From Gemmatimonadota bacterium (lineage in GTDB: Bacteria > Gemmatimonadota > Gemmatimonadetes > Gemmatimonadales > GWC2-71-9): a stretch of DNA of 64,000 nt. Below are positions 1 through 59,327 of this stretch, piece after piece (the first letter of the stretch is position 1; each line of letters opens with the position of its first letter). The notes under the pieces were generated by a model. The model made no database searches and was not told where the DNA came from. It saw nothing but the letters and a program-made list of their open reading frames with translations. Position numbers and translations under genes: made by a program. The DNA lies in assembly GCA_039591615.1 (NCBI GenBank), contig JBDHDH010000013.1:39-64038 (forward strand), in the 5' to 3' direction.

Positions 1-326
1 AGCACCCCGGCCTCGGCAATCAAGGCCATGCCGAGGACCGGGACGAGGGTCCACCAACGCTCGAGCTTGGGGCTGGTGGCGGGGGAACGCGTGGGCTGGC
101 CGCGACCGTACAGCCACAGGAAGGCGACGAAGACCACCGCGCCGATCACGAGAATAGCCCCCGTGGTGAGAAGCAGGTACCGGATCACACCGTCGACCCC
201 GACCCCGTGCTGCGACGCCACCGGTGGGAGCCAGTTCGTGGCAAACCCGATAACTGTGAAGAGCGCAATCCCGAGAAACAAGAGAATGACGGCGATGATC
301 TCAGCAGTTTGTCGACGTTCATTCAT
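1..326 (-). CDS. cytochrome c oxidase subunit II-like membrane protein, N-terminal part (gene continues beyond window start)
   Basis: Absent from the ORF track because no stop lies inside the window. Reading the reverse strand from ATG at 326-324 gives MNERRQTAEIIAVILLFLGIALFTVIGFATNWLPPVASQHGVGVDGVIRYLLLTTGAILVIGAVVFVAFLWLYGRG... This is two hydrophobic helices around an AS.H...D loop, as in the COX2 TM domain. The + strand ORF 28..453 is an Arg/Pro-rich shadow. Confidence 0.4.
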   Translation of the reverse strand, partial: MNERRQTAEIIAVILLFLGIALFTVIGFATNWLPPVASQHGVGVDGVIRYLLLTTGAILVIGAVVFVAFLWLYGRGQPTRSPATSPKLERWWTLVPVLGMALIAEAGV

Positions 327-576
327 CGGCAGCTCTCGCTCTGCGAGTTTCTCGGTCGGTCGCAGGCCCCACCACTCCCAGCGCCCCCGAATGGGGCCCG
401 TAAGTCCGCCAAGCTGTCGTCTGATACGTGGGGACGCAAGGCCGGCAGGCTGAATGCACAGCGGCGGCGAGCGTGCCACACGCCCGTCCGGGTGCCTGCG
501 GATCCGAGTGAAGATCTCATGAGATTTCTCTGAATCTCGCTCTGGACACTTGACCAATTCTACCAAATATTCAAAA

Positions 577-594
577 TTTTAATGTACGTTAAAA
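577..594. promoter_or_regulatory. near-perfect 18-bp palindrome (candidate TetR operator) inside an AT-rich island, with TTGACC -35-like hexamer at 550-555
   Basis: TTTTAATGTACGTTAAAA pairs at 8 of 9 positions. It lies 22 nt upstream of the TetR start (616) in the only strongly AT-rich stretch of this divergent intergenic region. Confidence 0.4.
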
Positions 595-615
595 TGCCGA
601 GAGAAGGACTCGGGT

Positions 616-1242
616 ATGCCTCGCGGACCGACCGCAACCACGCAATCACCCTACGTGCGCAGGAAGCGCCGCCAGCGGCGCATGGAGATCCTCCACGCCG
701 CCCTCCGCGCCTTCAACGAGAAGGGCTATCACGCGACCACGTTGGACGACATCGCGGAACATCTCGGCGTCCGGAAGACGGCCCTGTATCACTACTTTCC
801 CGACAAAGAAGCCATCCTCTTCGAGAGCCATCGCGAATCCCTCGCGGAATTGGAACGACATTTTGGAGAGGCACGGGAGCGATTCGAGAGGGCGCCGGAT
901 CGCTTACGCTACATCATCCGCGAGCACGTCCGTGTCATGACCGACACGCTCGAAGGCTCGCCGTTGGCGTTCGAGATTCCCGCGCTCTCCCCGAAGCATC
1001 AGAACAAGATCGTCGCCGGTCGCGACCGCTACGAACAGGGATTACGGCAGATCATCACCGATGGAATCGAGCGTGGTGACTTCCGTAAGACTGATCCGAG
1101 AATCGCGACTTTTGCCATCCTTGGCGCCATCAACTGGATCGCCCGATGGTATCGACCCGAAGGATCGCTCCACGCTCCCGAACTGGGAGACGCATTTGCT
1201 GAACACCTGGTAGGAGGCCTCACATGCCGGCGGGCACGCTGA
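616..1242 (+). CDS. TetR/AcrR family transcriptional regulator
   Basis: N-terminal HTH ...EILHAALRAFNEKGYHATTLDDIAEHLGVRKTALYHYFPDKEAIL is a typical TetR_N. The length is 208 aa. The 3' end overlaps the next gene by 19 nt. Confidence 0.9.
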   Translation: MPRGPTATTQSPYVRRKRRQRRMEILHAALRAFNEKGYHATTLDDIAEHLGVRKTALYHYFPDKEAILFESHRESLAELERHFGEARERFERAPDRLRYIIREHVRVMTDTLEGSPLAFEIPALSPKHQNKIVAGRDRYEQGLRQIITDGIERGDFRKTDPRIATFAILGAINWIARWYRPEGSLHAPELGDAFAEHLVGGLTCRRAR

Positions 1243-2288
1243 CTCGAGAGTTCGTTCCACGTACGGCGGACTCATTCGCATTTCGCGACATCCTCTACCG
1301 CAAGAGTGATCAGGTCGCGTGGATCACCATCAACCGTCCGAATCTGTACAACGCCTACTCCACCATGGCTCTGGAGGAGATCGCCACGGCGTTTCGGGAC
1401 GCCAGCTTCGACGACGGCGTCGGTGTCATTGTCTTCACCGGAGCGGGAGACCGCGCATTCTGTACCGGTGGCGACGTGAAGGAGTATGCCGACAAATACG
1501 TGTCGACACCGAGGGATTACTGGAAGTACATGGCGCTCTTTCGAGCGTACATCGAAAGCATCCTCAACACCGGCAAGCCGGTGGTGGCTCGACTCAACGG
1601 CATGGCCGTGGGTGGCGGCAACGAGAGTCAACTCGCCTGCGACCTCACCGTGATGGCGCAACACACGTACATCAAGCAGGTGGGAACCCACGTCGGATCG
1701 GTGGCCTGCGGCGGGTCGACGCAGTGGCTCCCCATCACCGTAGGCGACAAACGCGCCCGGGAGATCCTCTTCCTCAACGAGCCCATCCCCGCCGACAAAG
1801 CCCTCGAGTGGGGGCTGGTGAACTGGGTGGTGCCGTCCGTCCGCCGGGGCGATACCTGGATCGAACGCGCATCGGCGCAGGAGATTCGCAAGGCCCAGCG
1901 AGGCGAAGACGGCTATAGCATCGACCTGACCAAGCTCGACGAGTTCGTGACCGACCTCTGTGCCCGACTTCTCGCGTCGTTCCCCGAGTGCACGCGGTAC
2001 ACGAAACAACAGTTGAACTTCTGGAAAGACCTCGCCTGGCATTCGACCGTGCGGCACGCACAGGACTGGCTCTCCCTGCATTACACCTGCTGGGAGCCCG
2101 TGGAGGGAATGCAGGCGTTCGTCGAAAAGCGAAAGGCCCGTTACGGGATGCTGCGCGAGCGCGCTGCCGACGGTCTGGCCAGCGAAACGCCTTGGGGCGC
2201 TTTCGTCCGACAGTGTGGCTCGTGCAACGCGAAGAATCTTCCGGCCAACCACGAATACTGCGGCGCATGCGGCCGACCGCTCTCGTAA
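1224..2288 (+). CDS. crotonase-superfamily enzyme, MenB/BadI/Oah(BamA)-like candidate ring-cleaving hydrolase, with C-terminal CxxC..CxxC tail
   Basis: Crotonase motifs FTGAGDRAFCTGGDVKEY and NGMAVGGGNESQLACDL. NLYNAYST resembles the QYNSYTT region I recall from BamA. At 354 aa it is longer than a plain hydratase. It ends in CGSCNAKNLPANHEYCGACGRPLS. Confidence 0.7.
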   Translation: MPAGTLTREFVPRTADSFAFRDILYRKSDQVAWITINRPNLYNAYSTMALEEIATAFRDASFDDGVGVIVFTGAGDRAFCTGGDVKEYADKYVSTPRDYWKYMALFRAYIESILNTGKPVVARLNGMAVGGGNESQLACDLTVMAQHTYIKQVGTHVGSVACGGSTQWLPITVGDKRAREILFLNEPIPADKALEWGLVNWVVPSVRRGDTWIERASAQEIRKAQRGEDGYSIDLTKLDEFVTDLCARLLASFPECTRYTKQQLNFWKDLAWHSTVRHAQDWLSLHYTCWEPVEGMQAFVEKRKARYGMLRERAADGLASETPWGAFVRQCGSCNAKNLPANHEYCGACGRPLS

Positions 2289-2980
2289 CCGGTGCCAGCG
2301 GAGGGATCGGCCGCGCCATCACGAAGGCGCTTGCTCGAGATGCAACCGTCGTCGCGTTGGACCGCACCTTCACCGATCCTCTTCAGGCGGCGAGCCGGGC
2401 GGTCGAGGTCGACGTAGCGAACGCCGCGGCGGTGATGAGCGCGATAGGAAAAGTCGGTGCCGAGCTGGGAGCGATCGACTGGGTCGTGTGCGCTGCAGGG
2501 ATCATCCGCGACCGGGTGAGCTGGAAGATGACCGACGAGGAATGGTCCAGCGTCATCGACGTCAATCTCACGGGGGTCTTCAACACCGCCCGCGCGGTGA
2601 CCCCGTTCCTTCGAAAGTCTTCAGCGGGACGCCTCGTGTTCATCGGCTCCATCAACGGAACGCGCGGGCGTTTCGGACAGGCGAACTACACGGCGGCGAA
2701 GGCAGGGTTGGTCGGACTCGCGCGAACGCTCGCTCTCGAGCTGGCCAGGGACCAGATCACGGTGAACGTGGTGAGTCCTGGCTTCATCGATACGCCAATG
2801 ACACGGTCGCTCCCGGCTGACCTGCAGGACCGAGCCGTCGCCCGCACGCCCCTGCGCCGAGCCGGATGTCCCGACGACGTGGCGGCCGCAGTCAGATTCC
2901 TGTGCAGTGCAGACGCGGGTTTCATCACTGGGACCGTTCTCCCCGTGGATGGAGGACAGCTCCTGGGGGAGGTGGCTTGA
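2267..2980 (+). CDS. short-chain dehydrogenase/reductase (FabG/BadH-like 3-oxo/hydroxyacyl reductase)
   Basis: Start chosen at the internal ATG giving MRPTALVTGASGGIGRAI (TGxxxGxG). The catalytic YTAAK motif is present. The upstream part of ORF 1988..2980 overlaps the crotonase and is Arg-rich noise. Confidence 0.85.
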   Translation: MRPTALVTGASGGIGRAITKALARDATVVALDRTFTDPLQAASRAVEVDVANAAAVMSAIGKVGAELGAIDWVVCAAGIIRDRVSWKMTDEEWSSVIDVNLTGVFNTARAVTPFLRKSSAGRLVFIGSINGTRGRFGQANYTAAKAGLVGLARTLALELARDQITVNVVSPGFIDTPMTRSLPADLQDRAVARTPLRRAGCPDDVAAAVRFLCSADAGFITGTVLPVDGGQLLGEVA

Positions 2981-2982
2981 GT

Positions 2983-3741
2983 ATGGCAGTCCGGACATCG
3001 ATCGACGACGGCATCGGGCACTTGGTGCTCAGTCACCCGCCCCTCAACATCCTGACTCGGGACGTCCTGCAGGCTATTCGCGGGGAGCTGGATCGACTCG
3101 CAAAAGAGCCGTCGCTGCGCGTCCTCTTGTTGAGCGCGGACGGAAAGCACTTTTCGGCGGGCGCTTCCGTGGAGGAGCACTTGCCGCCGCAGCACAAGGA
3201 GCTCATTCCGGAGTTCATGAACACCGTGGCCGAGCTCGATGCGTTCCCGCTCCCGGTCGTGGCGGCAGCGCAAGGGCGCTGTCTCGGGGGCGGATTCGAG
3301 CTCGTGCTCGCTGCGGACATCATCATTGCTGCCGAGGGGGCGACCTTCGGTCAACCGGAGATCCTCCTCGGCGTCGTGCCGCCAGCAGCGTGCGCCATGC
3401 TCCCTTATCTCACCTCCCGCAGCGTTGCGGCGGAGCTGGTGTATACGGGAGAGCCCTTGAATGCGCACGATGCACGAGAGGCCGGGCTCGTCGCCCATGT
3501 GGTCGCGGCCGACGAGCTCGAACGGGAGGCCCTTGCCTTCGCGCGGCGTATCGCCGCACGCAGCGCAGCCGCCCTGCGACTGGCGAAACGGACGATGCGG
3601 GGCCACGAGCGCACAGAGCGGGCGAATGAATTCGCTCGGGCATGCTACCTCTACACGGGAGCGTTGATGCAAACGCAGGACGCCCTCGAGGGGCTCAACG
3701 CCTTCATGGAAAAACGCCAGCCCGTCTGGAGCCACCGGTGA
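2983..3741 (+). CDS. enoyl-CoA hydratase/isomerase family protein (candidate dienoyl-CoA / cyclohexenoyl-CoA hydratase, Dch/BadK-like)
   Basis: Start at ATG 2983 (MAVRTSIDDGIGHLVLSHPPLN). Crotonase motifs FSAGASVEEH and GGGFELVLAADIIIAAEGATFGQPE. About 252 aa. Confidence 0.8.
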   Translation: MAVRTSIDDGIGHLVLSHPPLNILTRDVLQAIRGELDRLAKEPSLRVLLLSADGKHFSAGASVEEHLPPQHKELIPEFMNTVAELDAFPLPVVAAAQGRCLGGGFELVLAADIIIAAEGATFGQPEILLGVVPPAACAMLPYLTSRSVAAELVYTGEPLNAHDAREAGLVAHVVAADELEREALAFARRIAARSAAALRLAKRTMRGHERTERANEFARACYLYTGALMQTQDALEGLNAFMEKRQPVWSHR

Positions 3742-3745
3742 ACGA

Positions 3746-3788
3746 CAGTGAGCAGTGAGCAGTGAGCAGTCAAACAATTAGCAGTGAG
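3746..3788. repeat. heptanucleotide tandem repeat (CAGTGAG)3 plus degenerate units, directly after the stop codon at 3739-3741
   Basis: cagtgag cagtgag cagtgag cagtcaa acaatta g cagtgag. The TGA triplets fall in all three frames. Confidence 0.9.
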
Positions 3789-3810
3789 AAGTCGACAGGG
3801 GTACTGAGCC

Positions 3811-4995
3811 GTGATGAGTAACCGCACGATCGAGACCGACGTCTTCCCGGAGTGGCGGGGAGGCTCTTTGGACGAAGTCCTCTACCAATGCCGCGAGCTC
3901 TTGGAGGACACGAGCTTTCCCACCGTCAGCCGGTGGCGCGCCAACGGCGGGAAGGTCCTCGGCCACTTCCAGGTCTACTTCCCCGAGGAGATCGCCCACG
4001 CGGCCGGTCTCCTACCCTTCAAAGTCCGAGGCGCGCCCATCGAGCCGGTCCACTCGGATTCACGCTTCGGATCGTACCTCTGCTCCATTCTCAAGACCTC
4101 GCTCGAGTTGGCGCTGAGCAACGTTGTGGAACTCGAGATGTTCGTCACCCATCCCATCTGCGACGCCGCGCGAAATCTCGCTGGCGTGTGGGGACGTAAC
4201 GTCTCGTACCCGTGTCAGATCCTCTACCTCCCACAGAACGCCAACTCAGGCCACACCGTCACCTACCTCCGAGACGAGTACGACCGGCTCCGGCGAGCCA
4301 TCGAGGAGGTGGCGGGGCGAAAGGTGACCGACGAACACCTCCGACGGTCCACCGGGGAATTCAACCAGAACAGACAGCTCCTGCGCGACCTCTACGCCAT
4401 CAAGCGCGAGACGCCATGGCTTGTTTCCATCGACGAGGCATTCGTACTCGTCGCCGTTGGGGGTCTCATTCCCCGGGAAGAGCACAATGCGTTGTTGCGC
4501 ACCTCACTACCACTGATCCGCGAGCGGGCCGCGAGGCGTCAGGACAAGATCCGCGTGGTGTTCGAGGGCGGATTCTGCGAGCAACCTCCTCTCGATCTGA
4601 TTCGGGCGATTGGACGGTCTTGCTACGTCGTGGATGACGACTTGCTCGTCGGCCTGCGGTGGATCACCGAGGACGTACCGCTGAATGGTGATCCCCTCCA
4701 TAATCTCGCGGAGGCATACATCGAACGATCAGCGCACAGCCCGGTGCAACACGATCTTCGAAAACCGAAGGAGCGAATGCTCCTCGAGCGCATCCAGAAG
4801 TCCCGCGCGCAGGCCGCCATCGTCACGGCTGCCAAGATGTGTGAACCGGGCCTCGAGGAACAAGTCGTCAACACCCGGACGCTGGATCAGGCGAACATTC
4901 CCTATTTCGTGAGCGAGTTCGAGGAGAACATGACCAGCTTCGATCACCTCGAGATCCAGCTCGAGACATTCGTAGAGAACTTGCTTTTCGACTAG
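3811..4995 (+). CDS. benzoyl-CoA reductase / 2-hydroxyacyl-CoA dehydratase family, smaller catalytic subunit (BcrC/BadD/BzdN-type)
   Basis: The 394-aa size and sequence style ([22 protein letters not shown]..., [18 protein letters not shown]) fit the HgdB/BcrC family. It is followed by the partner subunit and two ATPase genes. ATG at 3814 is an alternative start. Confidence 0.75.
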
Positions 4996-5021
4996 CATGA
5001 GACACCGGTCTGCCACCACGT

Positions 5022-5099
5022 CCACCGATCCCACTGTTCCCACCGATTCACTGGGGACGGTCGAGGGAGGCGGCGGATCGGGCGGGATCGGCGGAACAG
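5022..5099. repeat. inverted/direct repeat structure in the spacer between the two large reductase subunit genes
   Basis: CCACCGATC occurs twice (5022-, 5040-) and is answered by GATCGGGCGG / GATCGGCGG (5077-, 5087-). CTGTTCC (5033-5039) pairs with GGAACAG (5093-5099). Confidence 0.5.
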
Positions 5100-5115
5100 G
5101 CAGAGGAGACCACAG

Positions 5116-6456
5116 ATGAGCAAAGCCGCGCACACCGACACCATTGTCGGGCGAGGAAACCGAGATGGCGCTCGTCTCTTTCGCGAGTGGTTCACGGGCC
5201 TTGGCCAGGCGGCCGCCGAGGAACGCCCCGCCGCGTACGTGTTCGTGATGGGCAGCATGGTCGAGCTGCTTCGGGTGTTCGACCTCCCGATCGTCTTTCC
5301 GGAGATCAACTCCCTTCAGACGGCGGTGCGGCGTGTGGCCCATGAGTATCTCGACGAAGCGGAGGACTACGGCTATTCACCTGACATCTGTGGGTATGTA
5401 AAGGCAGATGTCGCCACACAGCTGCGTGGCGGCGAACACCCCATGGGGCGGATCCCCAAGCCATCCATCGCCGTCTACACGAATGCCTGTAACACCTACA
5501 TCAAGTGGGCTGAGATCTGGGAACGGATGTATCAGATCCCGCTCTTCACCCTGGACATACCGGGAACCCGTGAAGCGGGTGCGCAGACCTGGCCCGGCGA
5601 AGAGGATTTCGAGCGCGATCGCCGCTACGTCGAAGGACAGATTAGGGAACTGATTCCCATGTGCGAGACCGTGTCTGGCATACCGTTCGACATCGATCGA
5701 CTCCGCGAGACCATGGAGCATGCCAACACCATGAGCCGGGCATGGAAGCGTTTGTTGGAGTTGAACCGGAGCAGGCCGTCGGTCTTCAGTGCGCTTTCCG
5801 AAGGAACCATCTATCTGGGCGTGTCGAATGGATTCCGAGGCTCCTCGGCTGGAGCCTCGTACTTCGAGGATCTCGTCGAGGAGATGGAATACAAGGTCGA
5901 TCACGGGATCGGTACGCTCACAGATGAGCGCTTTCGCTTGGTTTTTGTCGGCGTCCCCTGCTACCCGATTTTCCGGCGCTTCAACGAGCTCTTCACCGAG
6001 TGGGGGGGAACGTTCGTGAACTCCACGTACCTGTGGTTTGCCTCGGGTGGCTCCAACGTGGGCTTCGAGTACGACCTGGCTCGCCCCTTGCAGAGTTTGG
6101 CGGAAGGGGTGCTCATCAGTGTCCGGGACGCGATGGACAGCATGTTCTTTCAAACCCAGCTGCTGGCCGACATGATCGACACTCATCAAATCGATGGTGT
6201 CGTATTTCACCCTATCAAGAGCTGCCGCACCGTCTCCACGGGGTTGGCCGACAATCGCCGAGCGCTCATGGAACTGCGGGATGTTCCCAGCCTGTTTATC
6301 GAGTCTGACATGATGGACCGTCGCGTCGTATCGGAAGCCCAGCTCAAGAACCGGATCGATGCGTTCTTCGAGGGACTTCACTCCCGTGGGCAGCACGCCG
6401 CCCATGCCGAACAGGCGGCGGCGCGGGCCGAGGGTCGGCCCGATGGCACAGACTAG
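5116..6456 (+). CDS. benzoyl-CoA reductase / 2-hydroxyacyl-CoA dehydratase family, larger catalytic subunit (BcrB/BadE/BzdO-type)
   Basis: 446 aa, with VFVMGSMVELLRVFDLPIVFPEINSLQ, YSPDICGYVKADV, YTNACNTYIKW and HPIKSCRTVSTG, typical of the HgdA/BcrB family. Confidence 0.75.
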   Translation: MSKAAHTDTIVGRGNRDGARLFREWFTGLGQAAAEERPAAYVFVMGSMVELLRVFDLPIVFPEINSLQTAVRRVAHEYLDEAEDYGYSPDICGYVKADVATQLRGGEHPMGRIPKPSIAVYTNACNTYIKWAEIWERMYQIPLFTLDIPGTREAGAQTWPGEEDFERDRRYVEGQIRELIPMCETVSGIPFDIDRLRETMEHANTMSRAWKRLLELNRSRPSVFSALSEGTIYLGVSNGFRGSSAGASYFEDLVEEMEYKVDHGIGTLTDERFRLVFVGVPCYPIFRRFNELFTEWGGTFVNSTYLWFASGGSNVGFEYDLARPLQSLAEGVLISVRDAMDSMFFQTQLLADMIDTHQIDGVVFHPIKSCRTVSTGLADNRRALMELRDVPSLFIESDMMDRRVVSEAQLKNRIDAFFEGLHSRGQHAAHAEQAAARAEGRPDGTD

Positions 6457-6492
6457 GCGCCCTTCAATCATGAATCGCTGACCGAGGGAACC

Positions 6493-7305
6493 ATGGCATA
6501 CGCAGCCGGAGTGGATGTCGGCTCGACGCAAACCAAAGCCGTCATCATCAGCGAACAGCGAGTGATCATCGGAAGGGCATTGACGGACACGGGCGCCAAC
6601 GTGATTCGCGCTGCCGAGAGCTCGTTCCAGGAAGCGCTCCGCAATGGTGACGTGCGGGAGGAAGAGGTGGAGTACGTCGTGGGGACCGGTTACGGCCGCT
6701 ACAAGGTGACGTTCGGAAACACGCAGGTGACGGAGATCAGCTGCCACGGCCGCGGAGCCGTGCACATGTTCCCGAAGACCCGAACGGTGCTCGACATGGG
6801 CGGGCAAGACACCAAAGCGATCCGCGTATCAACAGGCGGCGAGATCCTCGATTTTTGCATGAACGACAAATGCGCGGCCGGCACCGGACGGTTCTTGGGG
6901 GCGGCGTCGAGCGCCCTGGACATCCCGCTGAACGACCTCGGACCGACGGCACTGCAGGGGGAACGCCCGGTGAAGATCAGTACCACGTGTACGGTATTCG
7001 CCGAATCCGAGGTCCTTTCGTGGCTCGGGAAGGGTAAGAAGATCGAGGACATCCTCTTGGGCGTCCATCAATCCATTGCCAGCCGATCGGTCGGATTGCT
7101 CCGGCGAGTCGGCATCGAGGAGGACGTGACCTTCACAGGAGGCGTGGCCCGAAACGTGGCAATGATCGGGGCGTTGAGCCAGCGCCTCGGTCTGTCGGTC
7201 AATGTGAGTGTCGAGTCTCACTTCATGGGCGCACTCGGTGCGGCATTGTTTGCGCTGGACCACATCCTGTCGAGCCGCGCACCCGCTCACGCCGCACGGG
7301 GATAA
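6493..7305 (+). CDS. BadF/BadG/BcrA/BcrD-type ATPase (electron-activating subunit 1 of the reductase)
   Basis: Acetate/sugar-kinase fold motifs [13 protein letters not shown] and [10 protein letters not shown]. Cluster-bridging Cys motifs [13 protein letters not shown] and [17 protein letters not shown] is also present. Confidence 0.85.
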
Positions 7306-7307
7306 CC

Positions 7308-8144
7308 ATGACGTACACCGCCGGAATCGACATCGGTTCGACGTACACCAAGGCTGTGATACTCAGTGAGCAGCATGACATCGTGGGCCGTGCGATGCAG
7401 CCGACGGGCTTTCGCTTGGCCGAAACCACCGAGCATACCTATCGCTCGGCCCTCGAAGCAGCATCCCTCGACGATGACAAGGTCGCCTATATCGTGGCGA
7501 CTGGCTTCGGGCGACACCAGACCGAGATCAGCAACATCCACGCGACCGATCTGACGGCCGCCGCCCGCGGAGCCACGTTCTTCTATCCCCAGACTAGGAC
7601 GATCCTCGATGTCGGGGGCCAGACGATGAAGGCCAGCCGGCTGGATGAGCACGCGAAAGTGAAATCGTTCCGTCTCAACGACAAGTGCGCAGCAGGAACC
7701 GGCGCATTCTTAGAAAAGACGGCTCGGTACATGGGATACACCACCGAGGAAATCGGTCCGCTCGTCACGACCTCAAAGGAGGCAATCCCCATCTCCGGAG
7801 TCTGTGCGGTTTTCGCTGAATCCGAGGTGATCAATCACCTCTCGCAGGGAGTCGCGCCAGCAGACATCATGCACGGTGCGATCGTCTCACTAGTCGGGCG
7901 GTCCGTGCAGCTCATGAAGCGAGTTCGGATGGAACCGGAGTTTACGCTCGTCGGAGGGATTCTACGCTTCGAGCGCATGGTCAAGGTCGTGGCGAACGAG
8001 ATCGGAGCCGCCGTCAACGTCCCGCCGGGCGACCTCGTCCAATACGTTGCGGCACTCGGTGCCGCCCTGTTGGGACGTCGGCGGCTGGAGAAGCTCCAAA
8101 GAGACGGAACGGGCTCTCAGCGCACAGCAGCGGTCGAGGGGTAG
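7308..8144 (+). CDS. BadF/BadG/BcrA/BcrD-type ATPase (electron-activating subunit 2, paralog of the preceding gene)
   Basis: [48 protein letters not shown]. The start lies 2 nt after the previous stop. Confidence 0.85.
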   Translation: MTYTAGIDIGSTYTKAVILSEQHDIVGRAMQPTGFRLAETTEHTYRSALEAASLDDDKVAYIVATGFGRHQTEISNIHATDLTAAARGATFFYPQTRTILDVGGQTMKASRLDEHAKVKSFRLNDKCAAGTGAFLEKTARYMGYTTEEIGPLVTTSKEAIPISGVCAVFAESEVINHLSQGVAPADIMHGAIVSLVGRSVQLMKRVRMEPEFTLVGGILRFERMVKVVANEIGAAVNVPPGDLVQYVAALGAALLGRRRLEKLQRDGTGSQRTAAVEG

Positions 8145-8152
8145 GCACAACC

Positions 8153-8524
8153 GTGGACGACCAGAGAGCGAAGGATCCGACACCGCAAGAGATGGCACGA
8201 GACGCCGCCAAGCGGCTGGGCTTGGTCGTCGAACAGGAGGCTCGACGGACCTTCACCGAGACACAGCTGGCTCCCGATCCGGCCCGTGTGGCAGCTGGCT
8301 GGGAGCGCCGCTTCGTGACCGACGCGACACGCGCGCACGAGGCAATGGACCTCTACGAGGAGCTGGGCTACGAGGTATGTGCCGATCCGGTTCAGGCCGA
8401 ATCGCTCGAGGATGAATGTCGTGACTGTTGGCTGGTAACGCAGCTTCGGTTCGTGACGATCTACACGAGGAAGAAAGGGCGGGAAGGGCATGAGGGAACT
8501 AAGGGGCATGGTGCGGGAGGCTGA
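8153..8524 (+). CDS. hypothetical protein, operon-embedded (no family recognised)
   Basis: 123-aa ORF wedged 8 nt after the ATPase gene and 3 nt before the ADH gene. It has only three Cys (YEVCADP, EDECRDCW), so it is not a 2x[4Fe-4S] ferredoxin. Confidence 0.55.
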   Translation: MDDQRAKDPTPQEMARDAAKRLGLVVEQEARRTFTETQLAPDPARVAAGWERRFVTDATRAHEAMDLYEELGYEVCADPVQAESLEDECRDCWLVTQLRFVTIYTRKKGREGHEGTKGHGAGG

Positions 8525-8527
8525 TCG

Positions 8528-9550
8528 ATGAAAGCCGCTGTCTATCACGGGGCCAATCGACCCCTCGAACTCACTGAGGTACCGGACCCGATTGCCAAGC
8601 GTGACGAGGTCGTGGTCCGGGTCGCCGGGTGCGGCCTCTGTCATACCGATCTCCATTATCTCGATCACGGGGTGAAGACCTTCAAATCGCCGCCTCTGAT
8701 CTTGGGACACGAGGCGGCTGGCACGGTCGCCGCGCTGGGCGAGGGCGTAGCGGGGTGGACCGAAGGCGATCGGGTCTTGATTCCCGCGGTCTTGTCCTGC
8801 GGCCGCTGCGGCTATTGCCGGCGCGGCCGGGAGAACCTGTGTGACAACATGGTCATGCTGGGCAACAATATCGACGGCGCCTACGCCGAACTCGTCGCGG
8901 TACCGGCGTCAGAACTCATCGCCGTCCCCGACGAGCTCCCCCTCGAACGGGCGTGCGTCGTTGCGGACGCCATCTCAACGCCGTATCACGCCGTCAAACA
9001 CCGGGGACGCGTGCGGGCCGGCGACACGGTTGGCGTCGTCGGATGCGGCGGGGTGGGACTCAATGTCGTGCAATGCGCCGCCGTAGCGGGGGCGCACGTG
9101 ATCGCAGTGGACATCAACCGCGCGCGTCTCGACGTCGCCCAGCGTCTGGGAGCAGTCGAGACGGTGAATCCGCAACAGGTGGATCGTGTGGACAAGCACG
9201 TTCGCGCGCTCACCGACGGCGGCGTGGACATCGCCTTCGAGGCAATCGGCACGCCTGAAACCATTCGCATGGCGTACGGCCTACTCCGACGGGGTGGTCG
9301 ACTCTGCGTCATCGGATACTCTCACAAAGACGCGACGCTCTCTGCCGCACGACTGATGTACTACGAGCTGGAGATCGTCGGAAGTCTCGGCTGCGGCGGA
9401 GGAGAATACCCGGAAATCATCGGCCTGGTCCGAGACGGTCGTCTCAAGCTAGATCCGATCGTCAGCGGCTCCCTCCCGCTCAACGACATCAACGAGGGAT
9501 TCGAACGCCTTCGGAAGGGAGAGGGTATCAGATGGGTCGTCACACCGTAG
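8528..9550 (+). CDS. zinc-dependent alcohol dehydrogenase (MDR) family; candidate 6-hydroxycyclohex-1-ene-1-carbonyl-CoA dehydrogenase (Had-like)
   Basis: GLCHTDLH and GHEAAGTV are catalytic-Zn motifs. CGRCGYCRRGRENLC is the structural Zn site. VGCGGVGLNV is the Rossmann motif. The Had assignment comes from context only. Confidence 0.85.
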   Translation: MKAAVYHGANRPLELTEVPDPIAKRDEVVVRVAGCGLCHTDLHYLDHGVKTFKSPPLILGHEAAGTVAALGEGVAGWTEGDRVLIPAVLSCGRCGYCRRGRENLCDNMVMLGNNIDGAYAELVAVPASELIAVPDELPLERACVVADAISTPYHAVKHRGRVRAGDTVGVVGCGGVGLNVVQCAAVAGAHVIAVDINRARLDVAQRLGAVETVNPQQVDRVDKHVRALTDGGVDIAFEAIGTPETIRMAYGLLRRGGRLCVIGYSHKDATLSAARLMYYELEIVGSLGCGGGEYPEIIGLVRDGRLKLDPIVSGSLPLNDINEGFERLRKGEGIRWVVTP

Positions 9551-10008
9551 AACCAGACCCGTTCCGGCAGTTCGAAGCCGAGCACGATGAAGCGTTGCGC
9601 GTTTTGATCCGCCTGGAGCACGCAGCAGAGGCGCTGGAGCACGGTGAACGTCCCGAGCCGCACCTCGAGATCGTGAGAGAGGCACACACGTTCGTCACGA
9701 CCGCCGTCCGAGCCCACAACGACAATGAGGAGCGGGCCCTCTTCGAGCTCCTCAACCTGCTCGATGAGGATGCACCAGTTGCCATCTTCGAGGACGAGCA
9801 CCGTGCCCTCAGACAACTCGAGGGAAACCTCGGCGCTGCGCTCGACGGCCCCCACCCCGCAACCGAAGTCCCCAAGGCCGCTCGGACCATGATCGACCTC
9901 CTCCGGGAGCATATCGAGCGGGAAAACGAGATGCTGTTTCCCTTGGCCCGAACACTCCTCGGACCCGAAGGCGTGGCCTTGGTAGCGCGGCGACTCACCG
10001 AGCCATAG
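9532..10008 (+). CDS. hemerythrin HHE cation-binding domain protein
   Basis: Four His/Glu helices: FEAEHDEA, HNDNEERALF, FEDEHRAL, REHIERENEMLFP. It overlaps the ADH gene by 19 nt. Confidence 0.75.
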   Translation: MGRHTVEPDPFRQFEAEHDEALRVLIRLEHAAEALEHGERPEPHLEIVREAHTFVTTAVRAHNDNEERALFELLNLLDEDAPVAIFEDEHRALRQLEGNLGAALDGPHPATEVPKAARTMIDLLREHIERENEMLFPLARTLLGPEGVALVARRLTEP

Positions 10009-10160
10009 GCGGGCTCGCCTGCACCCCGAAGTACGCCGAAACCTGGAAGGGTTATTCACCTTCCCACCCGCAACCGAGTTTCGATGGTCATTGTATCGAG
10101 AAGCCTCACCGACCAATTCGTCATTAGACTTCTGCAGAACTCCAACTCCTGGATGCAACC

Positions 10161-12581
10161 ATGATCGTTCTCGGAATCGCCGCCCTCGCGCTCCTTGGGG
10201 TTGCTCTCCTCTACGTTGGCCTCCCGTTCTGGGCGTGGTTTCTCCCCGGCGCCGCGGCGTTGGCGTGGTGGGGCATGGCTACCGGCGCGGAGTCGATCGT
10301 TTTTCAAATCTCCGCAGTAGCCTTCACAGGTGCCGCACTCGTGTTGGGGATCCGTCCCGTACGGCGCGTGCTGGTGAGCGGATGGCTCATGAGAATCATG
10401 GGAGGCGTGCTCCCCCGCATGGGGGAGACCGAACGCATCGCCCTCGAGGCCGGTACCGTATGGTTTGATGGAGACCTCTTTTCGGGTCGCCCCGATTGGC
10501 GCAAGCTCCTGGCTTTTCAGGTCCGGCCCTTGTCAGACGCCGAGCGCGCGTTCCTGGATGGTCCGGCGGAAGAACTGTGTCGGATGGTCAACCAGTGGGA
10601 CGTGGTACAGCAGGGTGATCTCGACTCCGACGCCTGGGACTTCCTCAAGCGTCATGGGTTCTTCGGCATGATCATTCCGGAAGAGTACGGTGGACTCGGA
10701 TTCTCGGCGGGCGCGCATTCCGCCGTCATCACCAAGCTTGCAAGTCGGAGTGTGACCGCCGCCGTCACCGTGATGGTCCCGAACTCGCTGGGGCCGGCTG
10801 AGCTCTTGCTGCACTACGGAACAAAAGAGCAAAAAGAGCACTACCTACCGCGTCTCGCAACCGGCCAGGAGATCCCCTGCTTCGCCCTGACCGGTCCGGA
10901 AGCCGGGAGCGACGCTGCCGCTACCCAGAGCATCGGCGTCATCTGCCGCGGCACCTTCCGCGGCAAAGAGGTTCTCGGCATGCGCTTGAACTGGCGCAAG
11001 CGCTACATCACCCTGGGGCCCGTTGCCACGGTGATCGGTCTCGCCTTTCGGTTACTGGATCCGGATCACCTCTTGGGCGACAAGGACGACCTGGGCATCA
11101 CCTGCGCCCTCATCCCCGCCGACCTGCCAGGCATCGACATCGGTACACGCCACGACGCTATGGGAGTTCCTTTCCACAACGGCCCCAACTGCGGGACCGA
11201 CGTCTTCGTGCCGGTGGACTTCATCATCGGCGGACGGCAAATGGCTGGAGAGGGATGGCGCATGCTCATGGAGAGCCTCGCTGCCGGACGCTCCATTTCG
11301 CTTCCCTCACTCGCCACCTCTTCCGGCGAACTGGCAGCCCGGGTCGTCGGCGCCTATGCGACCGTACGGGAGCAGTTCGACACCCCCATCGGCCGCTTCG
11401 AGGGAATCGAGGAGCCCCTCGCCCGTATCGGTGGGCTCACCTATATAATGAATGCCGCCAGGCGGCTCACGGCCGGTGCCGTCGATGCCGGCGAGAAGCC
11501 AGCAGTGCTCTCGGCCGTCGTCAAAGCGTATCTCACCGAAGCAATGCGCGTCGTCGTGAACGACGCCATGGACATCAGGGCAGGAGCCGCGATCTGCCGA
11601 GGCCCGCGCAACATCCTCGCCCGTGCATACCAGGCGGTTCCAATTGGTATCACCGTCGAAGGCGCGAACATCCTCACCCGTTCTATGATCATCTACGGAC
11701 AGGGGGCGATCCGCTGTCACCCATACGTCCAAGAGGAGATGCGTTCCGTTGCGGTTGGTCACGCGGCGCGCTTCGACCGCGCGTTCTTCGGTCACATCGG
11801 GTTCGTGTTCAGCAACATCGCACGCGCAGTGGCGCTCGCGCTCACCGGAGCTCGCCTCGCACGCGCGCCCACCGACGGCCGGATAGGCGGTTACTTCAAG
11901 CAGCTGTCACGGATGAGCGCGGCGTTCTCCGTGCTCTCGGATACCGCCATGGCCACACTCGGCGGAAAGCTCAAGCGACGCGAGAAGATCAGTGGTCGCC
12001 TTGCCGACGCGCTGGCGTGGATGTACCTGGCTTCCGCCGCTCTCAAGCGTTTCGCAGACGATGGGAAACCGGCACGGGACCTTCCATTCGTTGAGTGGGC
12101 GTGCGGCCACGCCCTGCACCAAATCCAGACGGCCCTCGTGGGTATCCTGGACAACCTTCCAAATCGGCTGGCGGCGTCGTTGCTGCGCCCCCTCCTCTTT
12201 CCCCTCGGTGCGCGGTATCGGCCTCCGTCCGATCGCACTGGCTCCGCCGTCGCGCGCGAACTCCTCGAAGACCGGGAGGCCCGTCTGCAACTCACCGCGG
12301 ACATTTACATCCCGCCGCGCGACGAGCCGGGTCTGGGACATCTGGAAGCCGCGCTCGACGAAGCCGTGGCGGCCCTTGCGGTCGAAACCAAGATTCGCGA
12401 TGCCGTGCGGGCGGGACTCTTGGACAAGGCCCCGGGAGACGTTCTACTGGAAGCTGCCGTCGACGCGGGGATCATCACTTCGCAAGAGCGCGAACAGGTC
12501 CTCTGCGCCGACCAGGTGCGTGACGAAGTCATTCAGGTGGACGCCTTCGATCAAGAGCGATTCCTCGCGCTGCGAGGGTGA
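10161..12581 (+). CDS. fadE: long-form acyl-CoA dehydrogenase FadE
   Basis: 806 aa with N-terminal TM helices followed by ETERIALEAGTVWFDGDLFSGRPDW, which closely parallels the E. coli FadE N-terminus. An ACAD core and C-terminal extension follow. Confidence 0.85.
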   Translation: MIVLGIAALALLGVALLYVGLPFWAWFLPGAAALAWWGMATGAESIVFQISAVAFTGAALVLGIRPVRRVLVSGWLMRIMGGVLPRMGETERIALEAGTVWFDGDLFSGRPDWRKLLAFQVRPLSDAERAFLDGPAEELCRMVNQWDVVQQGDLDSDAWDFLKRHGFFGMIIPEEYGGLGFSAGAHSAVITKLASRSVTAAVTVMVPNSLGPAELLLHYGTKEQKEHYLPRLATGQEIPCFALTGPEAGSDAAATQSIGVICRGTFRGKEVLGMRLNWRKRYITLGPVATVIGLAFRLLDPDHLLGDKDDLGITCALIPADLPGIDIGTRHDAMGVPFHNGPNCGTDVFVPVDFIIGGRQMAGEGWRMLMESLAAGRSISLPSLATSSGELAARVVGAYATVREQFDTPIGRFEGIEEPLARIGGLTYIMNAARRLTAGAVDAGEKPAVLSAVVKAYLTEAMRVVVNDAMDIRAGAAICRGPRNILARAYQAVPIGITVEGANILTRSMIIYGQGAIRCHPYVQEEMRSVAVGHAARFDRAFFGHIGFVFSNIARAVALALTGARLARAPTDGRIGGYFKQLSRMSAAFSVLSDTAMATLGGKLKRREKISGRLADALAWMYLASAALKRFADDGKPARDLPFVEWACGHALHQIQTALVGILDNLPNRLAASLLRPLLFPLGARYRPPSDRTGSAVARELLEDREARLQLTADIYIPPRDEPGLGHLEAALDEAVAALAVETKIRDAVRAGLLDKAPGDVLLEAAVDAGIITSQEREQVLCADQVRDEVIQVDAFDQERFLALRG

Positions 12582-12624: not shown

Positions 12625-13749
12625 TCATGAGACCGCGGCCGCGCGAAACCGCCGCGCCGCGTACCAGAGGAGGAAGCTGCCCAGAACGAGCAACGCCACG
12701 TACTGTGGCCAGAGGGCGGACGACCCCACCCCCTTCAGGAACACGGCCCGAACGATGTCGATGTAGTGACGAACCGGGTTGATGACCGTCAGCCACCGGA
12801 AGACGGCAGGCATGCTGCTCACCGGAAACATGAAGCCGGACAGCAAGATAGTCGGCATGAACACGAGAAAGCTGGCCATAAAGGCCTCCTGCTGTGTCTT
12901 GGAGATGGTCGAGATCAGCAGACCCAGCCCGAGTCCGGAGAGAAGAAACAGGACACTAGCTGCGAAAAGCAGCAGAAGGCTCCCACGGAAAGGCACACCG
13001 AACCAAAACAGGGCGACAGTGGTGACGAGGGTGAGATCGGCCAGCCCGACGAGGGCAAATGGCAGCGTCTTGCCGGCGATGAGCTCTCCTGACGTCAAGG
13101 GACTCACCCGGAGCTGCTCCAGCGTTCCTATCTCTCGCTCGCGCACCACGGCCAGGGAGGTGAGCAGTAAGCACACCAGGAGGATGAGGACACCCACCAC
13201 CGCGGGCACATTGTAGTCACGACTCGACAGATCCGTATTGAACCAGGGCCGCTCTCTGAAATCGATGACTGTGCGAGACGGGATGGAGGCTTGACGGAAG
13301 CCATAGCTCAAGATGATGCGCTCGGCGTAGCTCCGGACTATCGAAGCCGTGTTGGAATTTGTGCCGTCGACGAGGAGTTGAACCTCTGCCCCATGTCCGC
13401 TAAGGAGATCGGCGGCGAACCCGGCTGGGATTTCCAATCCCACCGCAGCCACCCCGTGATCGAGGGCGTGGATGAGGTCCGCTGATCGCTCCGACCGGGC
13501 ACTGACCTCGAAATAGCCCGATGCCGTGAGAACCGCCACTAACTCGCGGGATATGTGTGAGTTGTCATGGTCCACGACGAAGGTAGAGGTCTTCCAGATG
13601 TCGGTCGACACCGCATACCCGAACACCACCAGCTGAATGACAGGCGCGACGAAGATCACCCGGGCCATGCGCGGGTCTCGAAAGATCTGTCGGAATTCCT
13701 TTCCCAATATTCCGAGCACTCGCTCAACTCGCTCCCCCCACACACCCAC
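12625..13749 (-). CDS. ABC-2 type transporter permease (YbhR/YbhS-like)
   Basis: The C-terminal ~372 aa of ORF 12625..14370 are a 6-TM ABC-2 permease (LGILGKEFRQIFRDPRMARVIFVAPVIQLVVFGYA...). The first ~208 aa are Arg/His-rich read-through over the upstream gene. The likely start is GTG at 13749 or 13743. Confidence 0.8.
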   Translation of the reverse strand: MGVWGERVERVLGILGKEFRQIFRDPRMARVIFVAPVIQLVVFGYAVSTDIWKTSTFVVDHDNSHISRELVAVLTASGYFEVSARSERSADLIHALDHGVAAVGLEIPAGFAADLLSGHGAEVQLLVDGTNSNTASIVRSYAERIILSYGFRQASIPSRTVIDFRERPWFNTDLSSRDYNVPAVVGVLILLVCLLLTSLAVVREREIGTLEQLRVSPLTSGELIAGKTLPFALVGLADLTLVTTVALFWFGVPFRGSLLLLFAASVLFLLSGLGLGLLISTISKTQQEAFMASFLVFMPTILLSGFMFPVSSMPAVFRWLTVINPVRHYIDIVRAVFLKGVGSSALWPQYVALLVLGSFLLWYAARRFRAAAVS

Positions 13750-14864
13750 TACTGGATCTCCTTCCTGAAGACCCGCGTGGCGGCGAACAGCCCCAACACG
13801 GCGAAGGCGATCATCAGCAACCCCTGGACCCGAAGGACCTCCACGCCCACCCCTTTGAGGAAGATGCCTCTCGTAACGACGAGGAAATATCGAGCGGGAA
13901 TGAGATACGTCACGGCCTGCAGCGGAGTCGGCATGACATCGATGGCGAACATGAACCCCGAAAGCAGGAACGCCGGGAGGAAAGTGGTGATCATCGCCAT
14001 CTGGGTCGCGAGTAGCTGCGAGCGTGCAACCGCCGAGATGAACATGCCGAGGCCCAGGGCGCCGATGAGGAACGCCAGGGAGAGCATCATGAGGAGAATC
14101 GGGCTTCCACGAAACGGTACGTCGAAGAGCACCACGCCGATCACGGTGACCGCAACCACATCGACGAGTCCGATGGCCACGTAGGGTAAGAGCTTCCCCA
14201 ACACCACTTCCCCGCGTCGCACCGGCGTCGCGGCCAATTGCTCCATCGTCCCGCGTTCCCATTCCCGAGCAATGGTGAGCGACGTGAGCATGGCGGCGAT
14301 GATCATCATGATCACGGCTACCAGCCCCGGAACAATCATGTTCTTGCTCAGGAGCTCTTCGTTGTACCACACTCGGGTCTCGGTACGAATCGGCCGTGTT
14401 ACCGGTTGGCCTTCGAAGCGGACCCGCGTGGAATACGACTGGACGATGGCCCCAGCGTAGCCCAGGGCAATGGTCGCAGTGTTGGCATCACTCCCATCCA
14501 CCAACGCTTGCAGCTGCGCGGCGCGACCGGCGTCCAGATCTGCCGCGAAGCCGATGGGAATGACGAGAGCGACACGTACCCGCCCGCGATTCAGCAGGCC
14601 ATCGATCTCGTCATATCGCTCTGCGTTCCGTCGGAGAGTGAAGTAGCCCGAAGCCCAAAAGGCTTCGAGAAGATCCCGGCTCCGCTGTGACTGGTCGCGA
14701 TCGAGAACAGCGGTGGGGATATCGTCCACGTCCCAACTGATAGCGTACCCGAACAGAATCACGAGTAAGATCGGCAGTAGGAACGCCAACATCAGGCTCC
14801 GCGTATCACGGCGGAGCTGGATGACCTCCTTCCGGGCCACGGCAAGGAGTCGGCTTCGACTCAC
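13749..14864 (-). CDS. ABC-2 type transporter permease (YbhS/YbhR-like)
   Basis: MSRSRLLAVARKEVIQLRRDTRSLMLAFLLPILLVILFGYAISWD..., a large periplasmic loop, then 5 TM helices. It is a paralog of the downstream permease. Confidence 0.85.
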   Translation of the reverse strand: MSRSRLLAVARKEVIQLRRDTRSLMLAFLLPILLVILFGYAISWDVDDIPTAVLDRDQSQRSRDLLEAFWASGYFTLRRNAERYDEIDGLLNRGRVRVALVIPIGFAADLDAGRAAQLQALVDGSDANTATIALGYAGAIVQSYSTRVRFEGQPVTRPIRTETRVWYNEELLSKNMIVPGLVAVIMMIIAAMLTSLTIAREWERGTMEQLAATPVRRGEVVLGKLLPYVAIGLVDVVAVTVIGVVLFDVPFRGSPILLMMLSLAFLIGALGLGMFISAVARSQLLATQMAMITTFLPAFLLSGFMFAIDVMPTPLQAVTYLIPARYFLVVTRGIFLKGVGVEVLRVQGLLMIAFAVLGLFAATRVFRKEIQ

Positions 14865-14967
14865 GGAAGCGCCATCACCCGCGTCGGAACCGATGAGCCA
14901 TGGACACGACCGTCACCTCCGCGTCTGCTAGTGCCATTCGGTGTTCTGCATTCCGCGCTCGTCGCCA

Positions 14968-16850: not shown

Positions 16851-16914
16851 TAACGAAACACCGGCATCGTGAGCCAGCTGCGCTGGCGGGACGGGAACCG
16901 AACTCGTACCCCCA

Positions 16915-19277: not shown

Positions 19278-19894
19278 TCTTGACCTCCTGGGTCTTGCGT
19301 CAATCCTCGTCGCACGAAAAGGACGACGCTTTCCACGAGTTGCTCCCTGGTTCCAGGATCGTCCTGATCGAGGGAAGCGCCTTCCATGAGGGCCTGGCGG
19401 GTGAGGGAGAGGAACATGGGCTGGGCGCCTACACTCAGCGCCATCAGGAACGGGTCACCCCCTCGGACGGAACCGTCGCGCTGCCCCGCTGCAATCAGCT
19501 GGCTGAGCAGGCCAACGTTCCCCCTCATCGTTCGTCTTCCCGGCTCGGGCATAGGGCGAGCGCCGGCAAGATGATGGACGAGCAGCCGAGGGAGCTCGGG
19601 ATGCTCGTGGAGGTACTCGAAGAATGCGCGCACGAATCGCTCGATTCGTTGGAGGGGCGTGCCGATACCCGAGGCAGCCCGTGTCAGGTACTGAACGCTG
19701 GGCTCGACGACGGCGGCAAACGCGGCCTCGTACAGAGCGTCCTTGGAACCGAAGTGGTAGGTGATGGCGCCGAGGTTCGTGCCAGCCCGGCTGGTAATGG
19801 CCCGCACCGAGGTTCCCTCATATCCGTGGTGCGAGAAGAGCTCGGTGGCGGCCGCAACGAGGTCGGATGCAGTACCTGAGAGGCTGTCATTCAT
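19274..19894 (-). CDS. TetR/AcrR family transcriptional regulator
   Basis: HTH AATELFSHHGYEGTSVRAITSRAGTNLGAITYHFGSKDALY. It is the first gene of the efflux operon and overlaps tolC by 4 nt. Confidence 0.9.
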   Translation of the reverse strand: MNDSLSGTASDLVAAATELFSHHGYEGTSVRAITSRAGTNLGAITYHFGSKDALYEAAFAAVVEPSVQYLTRAASGIGTPLQRIERFVRAFFEYLHEHPELPRLLVHHLAGARPMPEPGRRTMRGNVGLLSQLIAAGQRDGSVRGGDPFLMALSVGAQPMFLSLTRQALMEGASLDQDDPGTREQLVESVVLFVRRGLTQDPGGQE

Positions 19895-59313: not shown

Positions 59314-59327
59314 GATGCCCCCTCCTC

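Follow-up and report, generated by a model that had tools for sequence, protein, structure and literature searches.

A predicted MBR-type class I aryl-CoA reductase operon in Gemmatimonadota and the small CxxC gene conserved beside it

Gene content of the locus

We analysed a 64,000-nt stretch of contig JBDHDH010000013.1 (assembly GCA_039591615.1), called the window below, in which twelve plus-strand open reading frames (ORFs) lie at 616-12581 with overlaps or short gaps between them (all coordinates are window positions unless a related locus is named). The cluster is very probably a genuine operon for an MBR-type class I aryl-CoA reductase with a Thauera-style lower pathway (Dch, Had and Oah), most likely in a Gemmatimonadota metagenome-assembled genome (MAG). 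A first-pass annotation, made from the letters alone, had described twelve compact same-strand genes; all twelve ORFs were found where it placed them, and each of its family assignments was borne out by Pfam and NCBIfam profile searches with equivalog cut-offs, which confirms the observation. The reductase subunits were additionally searched against all Protein Data Bank (PDB) chains. With refined start codons, from which gene coordinates and spacings were computed, the successive spacings from the TetR to the FadE gene are -19, -22, 2, 72, 120, 36, 2, 8, 3, -19 and 152 nt. The genes are as follows.

616-1242, plus strand: TetR regulator (TetR_N and TetR_C_24, Pfam)
1224-2288, plus strand: Oah-like crotonase, 354 aa, putative 6-oxocyclohex-1-ene-1-carbonyl-CoA hydrolase (best NCBIfam match TIGR03200)
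2267-2980, plus strand: FabG/PhaB-like short-chain dehydrogenase/reductase (SDR), putative 3-hydroxypimelyl-CoA dehydrogenase (TIGR01830)
2983-3741, plus strand: Dch-like crotonase, 252 aa, putative cyclohexa-1,5-diene-1-carbonyl-CoA hydratase (TIGR03189)
3814-4995, plus strand: reductase gamma subunit, 393/394 aa, MbdN/BcrC-like, HGD-D family
5116-6456, plus strand: reductase beta subunit, 446 aa, MbdO/BcrB-like, HGD-D family, predicted substrate-binding active-site subunit
6493-7305, plus strand: ATPase alpha subunit, 270 aa, MbdQ-like, BcrAD_BadFG family
7308-8144, plus strand: ATPase delta subunit, 278 aa, MbdP-like, BcrAD_BadFG family, distinct from alpha
8153-8524, plus strand: orf123, a conserved small CxxC protein of 123 aa that accompanies MBR-type reductases
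8528-9550, plus strand: zinc-dependent alcohol dehydrogenase (Zn-ADH), putative 6-hydroxycyclohex-1-ene-1-carbonyl-CoA dehydrogenase, Had-like, divergent (TIGR03201)
9532-10008, plus strand: hemerythrin HHE-domain protein (PF01814, 57 bits), overlapping the Zn-ADH gene by 19 nt
10161-12581, plus strand: FadE-type acyl-CoA dehydrogenase, 806 aa (ACDH_C, 338 bits), 152 nt past the hemerythrin gene

The first-pass annotation had counted FadE in the cluster. This gene adjoins the others only in near-identical contigs and is absent beside the cluster in all 80 related loci that we looked at closer (L001-L080), so the conserved unit runs from TetR to hemerythrin (616-10008), and FadE probably lies outside it.

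Type of the reductase

Class I benzoyl-CoA reductases comprise three types, BCR, MBR and BZD (PMC11971306). The two HGD-D and two BcrAD_BadFG proteins recognised by Pfam make up a class I heterotetramer gene set, and each of the four found its best PDB match in a solved Mbd chain: gamma in MbdN (9g87_B, E 1.7e-161, 541 bits), beta in MbdO (9g87_A, E 1.7e-154, 518 bits), alpha in MbdQ (9gai_D, E 2.4e-122, 411 bits) and delta in MbdP (9gai_C, E 5.5e-92, 311 bits). The next-best non-Mbd chains reached 110-225 bits, and dehydratase, activator or Bzd chains scored 94-225 bits, trailing Mbd by 185 to more than 400 bits. Identity to Thauera chlorobenzoica MbdN, MbdO, MbdQ and MbdP is 60% for gamma, 53% for beta, 71% for alpha and 55% for delta; the corresponding values for the Magnetospirillum sp. 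XM-1 homologues are 58%, 55%, 69% and 57%. The ATPases pair specifically, alpha with MbdQ and delta with MbdP, each being only about 38% identical to the other ATPase type. Both contain Cys127 (NDKCAAGTG) and Cys166 (C.VFAESEV), presumably the ligands of the subunit-bridging [4Fe-4S] cluster, so that the two non-identical ATPases with bridging cysteines noted in the first pass are indeed there.

Among the NCBIfam reductase models, the Thauera-type Bcr models scored best for beta, gamma and delta. All of these models (TIGR02259-02263) failed, with 201 bits against a cut-off of 486.55 for beta, 255 against 421.15 for gamma, 212 against 578 and 139 against 312.85; the main match to the BcrA model covered only positions 229-432 of its 432, the C-terminal part, the alpha subunit here having 270 aa. 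The bzdN, bzdO and bzdQ models (TIGR03190-03192) also failed (86, 94 and 197 bits against 454, 449 and 380) and ranked below the Bcr models for beta and gamma, and so did HadB and HadC (NF052455 and NF052456; 131 and 147 bits against 750 and 700). The characterised MbdO and MbdN of T. chlorobenzoica served as a control and likewise stayed below cut-off, at 221 and 230 bits against 201 and 255 for the window proteins; failing the equivalog models is therefore what an MBR-type enzyme does. The comparison with bzd-type and bcr-type models that the first-pass annotation had proposed thus stayed below cut-off throughout, and solved Mbd chains came out best instead. The BCR-type subclass, all four of whose models fell far below cut-off, was rejected, as was the BZD-type subclass, whose models failed and whose characteristic BzdO residues are replaced (see below). 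Placement in a phylogeny relied on profile hidden Markov model scores and a small neighbour-joining tree in which BcrB, BadE, HgdA, FldB and LcdA were not included; in this tree of beta subunits, the window clade is sister to proteobacterial MbdO and the Magnetospirillum homologue.

Three beta cysteines, Cys92, Cys125 and Cys370, align with the aqua-[4Fe-4S] cluster ligands of BzdO (Cys95, Cys128 and Cys380), and beta Tyr94 and Tyr305 with the thioester-binding Tyr97 and Tyr298 of BzdO (PMC11971306). Beta Glu63, which is conserved among the MBR-type sequences compared and lies outside the HMMER alignment, would be the equivalent of BzdO Glu65. BzdO His131 is replaced by Tyr128 (5497-5499), Gln274 by Val280 (5953-5955), and Glu381-Gly382-Leu383 by Arg-Thr-Val. 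Tyr128 and Val280 are common to 21 of 21 clade sequences compared (the window included) and to Magnetospirillum XM-1, and offer a possible handle on substrate or proton-donor differences. In the gamma subunit, Cys27, Cys91, Cys117, Cys256, Cys271 and Cys344 are present in all nine MBR-type sequences compared, and only three of the six align with cysteines of bona fide (equivalog-level) BzdN, the type of subunit whose cofactor is a double cubane. Given the replaced BzdO signature and the low bzdN and bzdO scores (86 and 94 bits, with cut-offs near 450), the likeness to the Azoarcus Bzd type suggested in the first pass was not upheld.

Comparison with characterised systems places these features in context. 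The window enzyme resembles MbdONQP of T. chlorobenzoica and Aromatoleum sp. CIB (PDB 9g87, 9gai, 9gal and 9gba) in its four one-to-one subunits (53-71% identity), short alpha ATPase (270 aa), beta and gamma cysteine pattern, sub-cut-off NCBIfam profile and orf123 homologue directly after the delta gene. It differs in gene order (N-O-Q-P in the window clade, O-N-Q-P in Thauera and Magnetospirillum), in forming a separate multi-phylum branch, in a regulator that shares only the helix-turn-helix (HTH) with MbdR, and in having no CoA ligase, thiolase or 3-hydroxyacyl-CoA dehydrogenase (3HCDH) gene in the cluster. The order gamma-beta-alpha-delta is instead that of Thauera aromatica, whose genes are arranged bcrCBAD, and the T. 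aromatica pathway has the same predicted succession of reductase, dienoyl-CoA hydratase, Zn-dependent dehydrogenase and ring hydrolase; unlike T. aromatica Bcr, however, the window set falls far short of the four Bcr models and has no ferredoxin or 2-oxoglutarate:ferredoxin oxidoreductase (KGOR) genes nearby. BzdNOPQ of Aromatoleum sp. CIB (PDB 8s02; PMC11971306) belongs to the same superfamily and shares the three beta cysteine ligands, the equivalents of Tyr97 and Tyr298 and two short ATPases, but is set apart by the failed bzd models, the replaced beta residues and the alignment of only three of the gamma cysteines. Genuine BZD-type genes in other Gemmatimonadota look quite different from the window set.

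Could the HGD-D pair and the ATPases instead be a 2-hydroxyacyl-CoA dehydratase and its activator, working in amino-acid fermentation beside ordinary beta-oxidation crotonases and dehydrogenases? The dehydratases (HadBC with HadI, HgdAB with HgdC) do share the HGD-D fold, the BcrAD_BadFG ATPase and the three-cysteine [4Fe-4S] site, and HadB and HadC are the second-best PDB matches. They use a single homodimeric activator, however, whereas the window has two different ATPase genes that pair specifically with MbdQ or MbdP. Moreover, the catalytic chains match those of dehydratases at only 110-115 bits, about 400 bits below their matches to MbdO and MbdN, the HadB and HadC models are missed by a wide margin, the gene context is one of ring degradation, and a sister locus (L026) has a near-identical reductase beside equivalog-level Had and Oah. 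This explanation is almost certainly wrong, being effectively refuted by sequence. Judged on its sequence, the reductase is an MBR-type class I (ATP-dependent) aryl-CoA reductase, and neither Bzd-type nor a 2-hydroxyacyl-CoA dehydratase. The first-pass proposal of a class I benzoyl-CoA-reductase-like dearomatisation and ring-cleavage cluster is strongly supported, all four subunits being closest to solved MbdNOQP.

Relatives of the operon and the orf123 family

Four NCBI MAG assemblies, GCA_039589015.1 among them, have contigs that are 99.9% identical to the window. One near-identical MAG contig (L081) is without short stretches near 990-997 and 2985 (window 1598-1625 and 3620-3679); its Oah-like gene is split into calls of 131 and 211 aa, and its Dch-like call has 238 aa, against 252 aa in the window. 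Both copies are intact in the window, and the gaps in L081 are an assembly or population variant.

Relatives beyond these came from a one-genome-per-species collection scanned with the beta subunit. At least 592 of its stretches encode a relative of this subunit and are counted as having the N-O-Q-P core; their source organisms, which come from soil, sediment and groundwater, belong to Gemmatimonadota, Acidobacteriota, Chloroflexota, Rokubacteria and other groups. The best 80 of these, at 72-82% identity, are mostly Gemmatimonadota and also include Blastocatellia, Terriglobia, Vicinamibacterales, Anaerolineales, Rokubacteria, Acidimicrobiia and an Akkermansiaceae MAG. The clade is single, short-branched and multi-phylum in the neighbour-joining tree, which suggests horizontal spread. 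The earlier impression of a lineage not classically linked to anaerobic aromatic degradation was right in spirit, the closest relatives being Gemmatimonadota MAGs. Metagenomic surveys have already listed class I BCR or benzoyl-CoA-pathway genes in Acidobacteriota, Zixibacteria and Gemmatimonadota MAGs, and their presence there is therefore not new; JGI names for window proteins include 'benzoyl-CoA reductase subunit B' and '6-hydroxycyclohex-1-ene-1-carbonyl-CoA dehydrogenase'.

Two layouts recur among the relatives. Type A, which is that of the window, consists of TetR, a zinc-ribbon Oah, SDR, Dch, N-O-Q-P, orf123, a divergent Zn-ADH and often hemerythrin. Type B has TetR, Had, Oah, SDR, sometimes a thiolase, Dch, N-O-Q-P and orf123. 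At L026, a type B locus of a sister Gemmatimonadota genome, the reductase is 76-86% identical to that of the window and stands beside Had (451 bits, cut-off 338.65) and Oah (558 bits, cut-off 464.45), both above equivalog level, which ties the clade to the canonical pathway.

Several type B and related loci have further genes of note. Past orf123, L026 (14592-18448) and L001 (13399-17011) have an HMGL-like (homocitrate/isopropylmalate-synthase-like) gene and, after it, indolepyruvate:ferredoxin oxidoreductase genes, a candidate ferredoxin-regenerating system of which the window has none; L088 (11015-12268) has the HMGL-like gene at the corresponding place. In L001 (757-8640; CP070815.1), and also in L008, L024 and L042, a bona fide BZD-type reductase sits directly upstream of the MBR-type N-O-Q-P-orf123 set, giving two class I reductases in tandem; the L001 BZD-type set has bzdN, bzdO and bzdQ all above cut-off, together with a Dch-like gene and an 855-aa GltD-like Fe-S oxidoreductase. 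Just upstream of the type B TetR gene of L088 (1-1189) is an 893-aa ADP-forming acyl-CoA synthetase-like protein (CoA_binding, Succ_CoA_lig, ATP-grasp_5 and acetyltransferase domains), possibly an unconventional aryl-acid activating enzyme.

The gene that follows the delta subunit, orf123, had been called an orphan. It is a real gene of an uncharacterised CxxC family, which holds 860 cluster representatives, the best 150 of them 69-155 aa long and without a fusion partner. Its core of about 70 aa has invariant W50, R53, F54, Y68, G72, C89-x-x-C92 and Y104-T-R106, and its substitutions favour third codon positions (853, 640 and 1512 at positions 1, 2 and 3). The gene stands directly 3' of the delta gene in 59 of the 66 related loci with room for it; the loci that lack it are six of Blastocatellia type and L004. 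All 161 homologues are hypothetical or nameless. The orf123 profile also matched an ORF overlapping the end of mbdP in T. chlorobenzoica (L085 10791-11117, E 3e-9), which keeps the motifs GWE.R, Y.ELG.EV and CxxC; this ORF is uncalled in the gene table of the NCBI record and is called in a related Logan contig. No Pfam match (including a permissive run with E up to 1) or NCBIfam match to orf123 was found, the best PDB sequence for its profile was a dynein docking protein at E 0.003, which we take as chance, and Foldseek with an AlphaFold2 model (pLDDT 77) returned nothing from the PDB at E 0.001. The solved MbdONQP entries contain no chain that matches the profile. For orf123, an accessory role in electron entry, maturation or protection is plausible.

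Proposed pathway, substrate and genomic setting

The three predicted ring-processing enzymes each score best against the corresponding Thauera-side model. The 354-aa crotonase reaches 212 bits with TIGR03200 (Oah; cut-off 464.45), above MenB (167) and BadI (165). It aligns full-length with the bona fide Oah of L026 (39% identity) and end to end with T. chlorobenzoica MbdY, and shares residues in the Oah C-terminal extension, beyond the part matched by MenB and BadI; its PDB relatives are only at MenB level. A C-terminal CxxC-X11-CxxC zinc ribbon, present also in a Caldilineaceae homologue, and the lack of a 20-aa insert mark it as what would be a divergent Oah subtype, a putative ring-opening hydrolase. 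Placing this protein, as the first-pass annotation had advised, thus put Oah above MenB and BadI, with all three below cut-off. The Dch-like crotonase scores 182 bits with TIGR03189 (cut-off 292.5), about the same as its homologue beside the bona fide BZD-type reductase of L001 (193 bits), and its gene lies directly 5' of the reductase in most related loci at 50-67% identity. The Zn-ADH reaches 252 bits with TIGR03201 (Had; cut-off 338.65) and is 41% identical to the bona fide Had of L026. The SDR matches TIGR01830 at 233 bits and the acetoacetyl-CoA reductase model at 222 bits; it is kept in the operon across phyla and adjoins a thiolase in L090, an arrangement that would fit 3-hydroxypimelyl-CoA oxidation. 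Co-occurrence of an SDR and a Zn-ADH, thought unusual in the first pass, recurs across phyla in this operon family.

A Rhodopseudomonas-type route would read the same genes differently, with reduction to cyclohex-1-ene-1-carboxyl-CoA followed by a BadK-like second crotonase, a BadH-like SDR and a BadI-like 354-aa crotonase, the Zn-ADH being unrelated. An SDR and two crotonases are indeed present, and BadI is among the top three models for the 354-aa protein. Its 165 bits fall far below the BadI cut-off of 467.6 and below the Oah score, however; the protein has the Oah-type extension residues; the top 25 SDR matches are FabG/PhaB-type, with no BadH model among them; and the Zn-ADH gene is translationally linked inside the operon and conserved there. 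We consider this route very improbable, and of the two lower pathways left open in the first pass, the Thauera side stood and the Rhodopseudomonas side did not.

In the Thauera-style pathway that we favour, the TetR repressor at the head of the operon would sense an acyl-CoA. The alpha/delta ATPase pair (6493-8144), holding the bridging [4Fe-4S] cluster, would take an electron from reduced ferredoxin encoded elsewhere and drive it by ATP hydrolysis to very low potential, passing it via an Fe-S cofactor of gamma to the three-cysteine [4Fe-4S] cluster of beta, where the ring of an aryl-CoA would be reduced to a cyclic 1,5-dienoyl-CoA. The Dch-like hydratase would then add water, the Zn-ADH would oxidise the 6-hydroxy group, the Oah-like hydrolase would open the ring to 3-hydroxypimelyl-CoA, and the SDR would start beta-oxidation. 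The substrate, on this evidence, would be benzoyl-CoA or a substituted analogue. We hold with good confidence that the operon serves anaerobic or low-oxygen breakdown of benzoyl-CoA-type aromatic thioesters. What the sequences show directly is that the four subunits are homologous to Mbd, that the cluster ligands and the tyrosines binding the thioester are conserved, and that synteny extends over Gemmatimonadota, Acidobacteriota, Chloroflexota and other phyla; the catalytic steps are predictions.

Several observations weigh against this reading. The window Dch-, Had- and Oah-like proteins all remain below their equivalog cut-offs, and the Zn-ADH scores about as high with a generic alcohol dehydrogenase (1rjw, 186 bits) as with solved Had (7quy, 183 bits), so these three assignments rest on best match and context. 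The MBR subclass goes with a preference for meta-substituted (methyl or chloro) benzoyl-CoA. T. chlorobenzoica MbdO has Phe and Thr at the positions of beta Tyr128 and Val280; since two positions at the BzdO active site differ from the characterised MbdO, substrate preference may differ too. Pfam found no aryl-CoA ligase (AMP-ligase) or 2-oxoacid:ferredoxin oxidoreductase among the main window ORFs, a few short gaps between ORFs being unscanned, and no frame of the 64 kb contains a CxxCxxCxxxC ferredoxin motif. This agrees with the first-pass statement that the window lacks a benzoate-CoA ligase, a ferredoxin and a ferredoxin-regenerating enzyme; genes for the electron donor and for substrate activation must lie outside the window. 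In the literature, class I BCR genes of such MAGs turned up as annotations only, and no report of a characterised clade member was found.

An alternative that we rate as rather unlikely is that type A operons are specialised for substituted or non-benzoyl aryl-CoA (methyl-, halo- or hydroxy-benzoyl-CoA), type B of sister genomes handling benzoyl-CoA. The closest characterised enzyme is reportedly a promiscuous methyl- and halobenzoyl-CoA reductase, and the window Had- and Oah-like proteins share only about 40% identity with the bona fide pair that stands beside near-identical reductases. The extra zinc ribbon and missing 20-aa insert of the Oah-like protein fit this idea, and the BZD-type reductases beside MBR-type ones in some Gemmatimonadota suggest a division of labour. 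Yet type A and type B loci agree at all twelve beta positions compared, which makes their reductases look equivalent. The Had- and Oah-like pair of type A is no closer to MbdX and MbdY (40% and 30%) than to canonical Had and Oah (41% and 39%), no second canonical Had/Oah set lies near any type A locus examined, and the divergent pair may be an alternative lineage doing the same job.

The hemerythrin gene recurs at the operon end in L004, L007, L050, L010 and L089, and its product is possibly an O2 or NO sensor or protector. In Magnetospirillum sp. XM-1 (L087 10878-12533), genes for an acyl-CoA dehydrogenase and a rubrerythrin take the place of orf123 after the delta gene; like the window hemerythrin, the rubrerythrin is an oxygen- or peroxide-related iron protein beside an MBR-type reductase. 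A speculative combined proposal, which we think improbable, is that orf123 is an overlooked fifth component of MBR-type reductases (a dedicated electron-entry adaptor, cluster-maturation factor or protection factor) and that the type A operon, with its zinc-ribbon Oah, divergent Zn-ADH and hemerythrin, would enable Gemmatimonadota, usually regarded as aerobic, to dearomatise a non-benzoyl aromatic thioester at the expense of ATP while oxygen levels fluctuate. The idea of an overlooked component comes from the conservation of orf123 from Thauera to Gemmatimonadota and its absence from the solved MbdONQP entries.

The regulator (TetR_N 111.5 bits, TetR_C_24 68.7 bits) overlaps the Oah-like gene by 19 nt and heads the operon in many related loci at 59-73% identity. 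Its best PDB relatives are 3vpr and 3dcf; a relationship to MbdR was rejected, only the HTH matching MbdR 4uds. Two features lie upstream of it.

543-577, plus strand: promoter-like hexamers (consensus matches only)
576-595, plus strand: AT-rich palindrome of 20 nt, ATTTTAATGT/ACGTTAAAAT, 20 nt before the TetR start in a genome of 63% GC

The palindrome is possibly an operator. A search of 25 related loci for a loosened form of it gave no match upstream of TetR, and a conserved operator at 576-595 was dropped as a candidate.

Further out, the cytochrome oxidase subunit II-like gene reported upstream was not substantiated: ORF 3-566 (minus strand) gives only a faint, below-cut-off match to COX2_TM (E 0.079). 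At 57913-62558 (minus strand), the SusC-like TonB receptor of a reported SusCD locus is clear and the SusD-like neighbour faint (E 0.11). A separate TetR-led efflux cluster (12625-19894, minus strand; TolC-like OEP, HlyD, two ABC ATPases and two ABC-2 permeases) is oriented convergently to FadE. The rest of the window holds this ABC-2/HlyD/TolC exporter, trehalose metabolism genes, peptidases, a penicillin-binding protein and the TonB-dependent receptor.

Class I benzoyl-CoA reductases have been best studied in denitrifying Thauera and Aromatoleum (PMC11971306). The operon extends this known biology and introduces no new principle; its interest comes from how broad the clade is and from the small, conserved accessory gene. 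For an enzyme with a newly solved structure, orf123 is a concrete and testable candidate for an accessory factor that has been missing. Should the enzymes prove active, ATP-dependent ring reduction would be common among uncultured phyla that are abundant in soil and sediment, with a bearing on the turnover of lignin- and pollutant-derived aromatics where oxygen is scarce.

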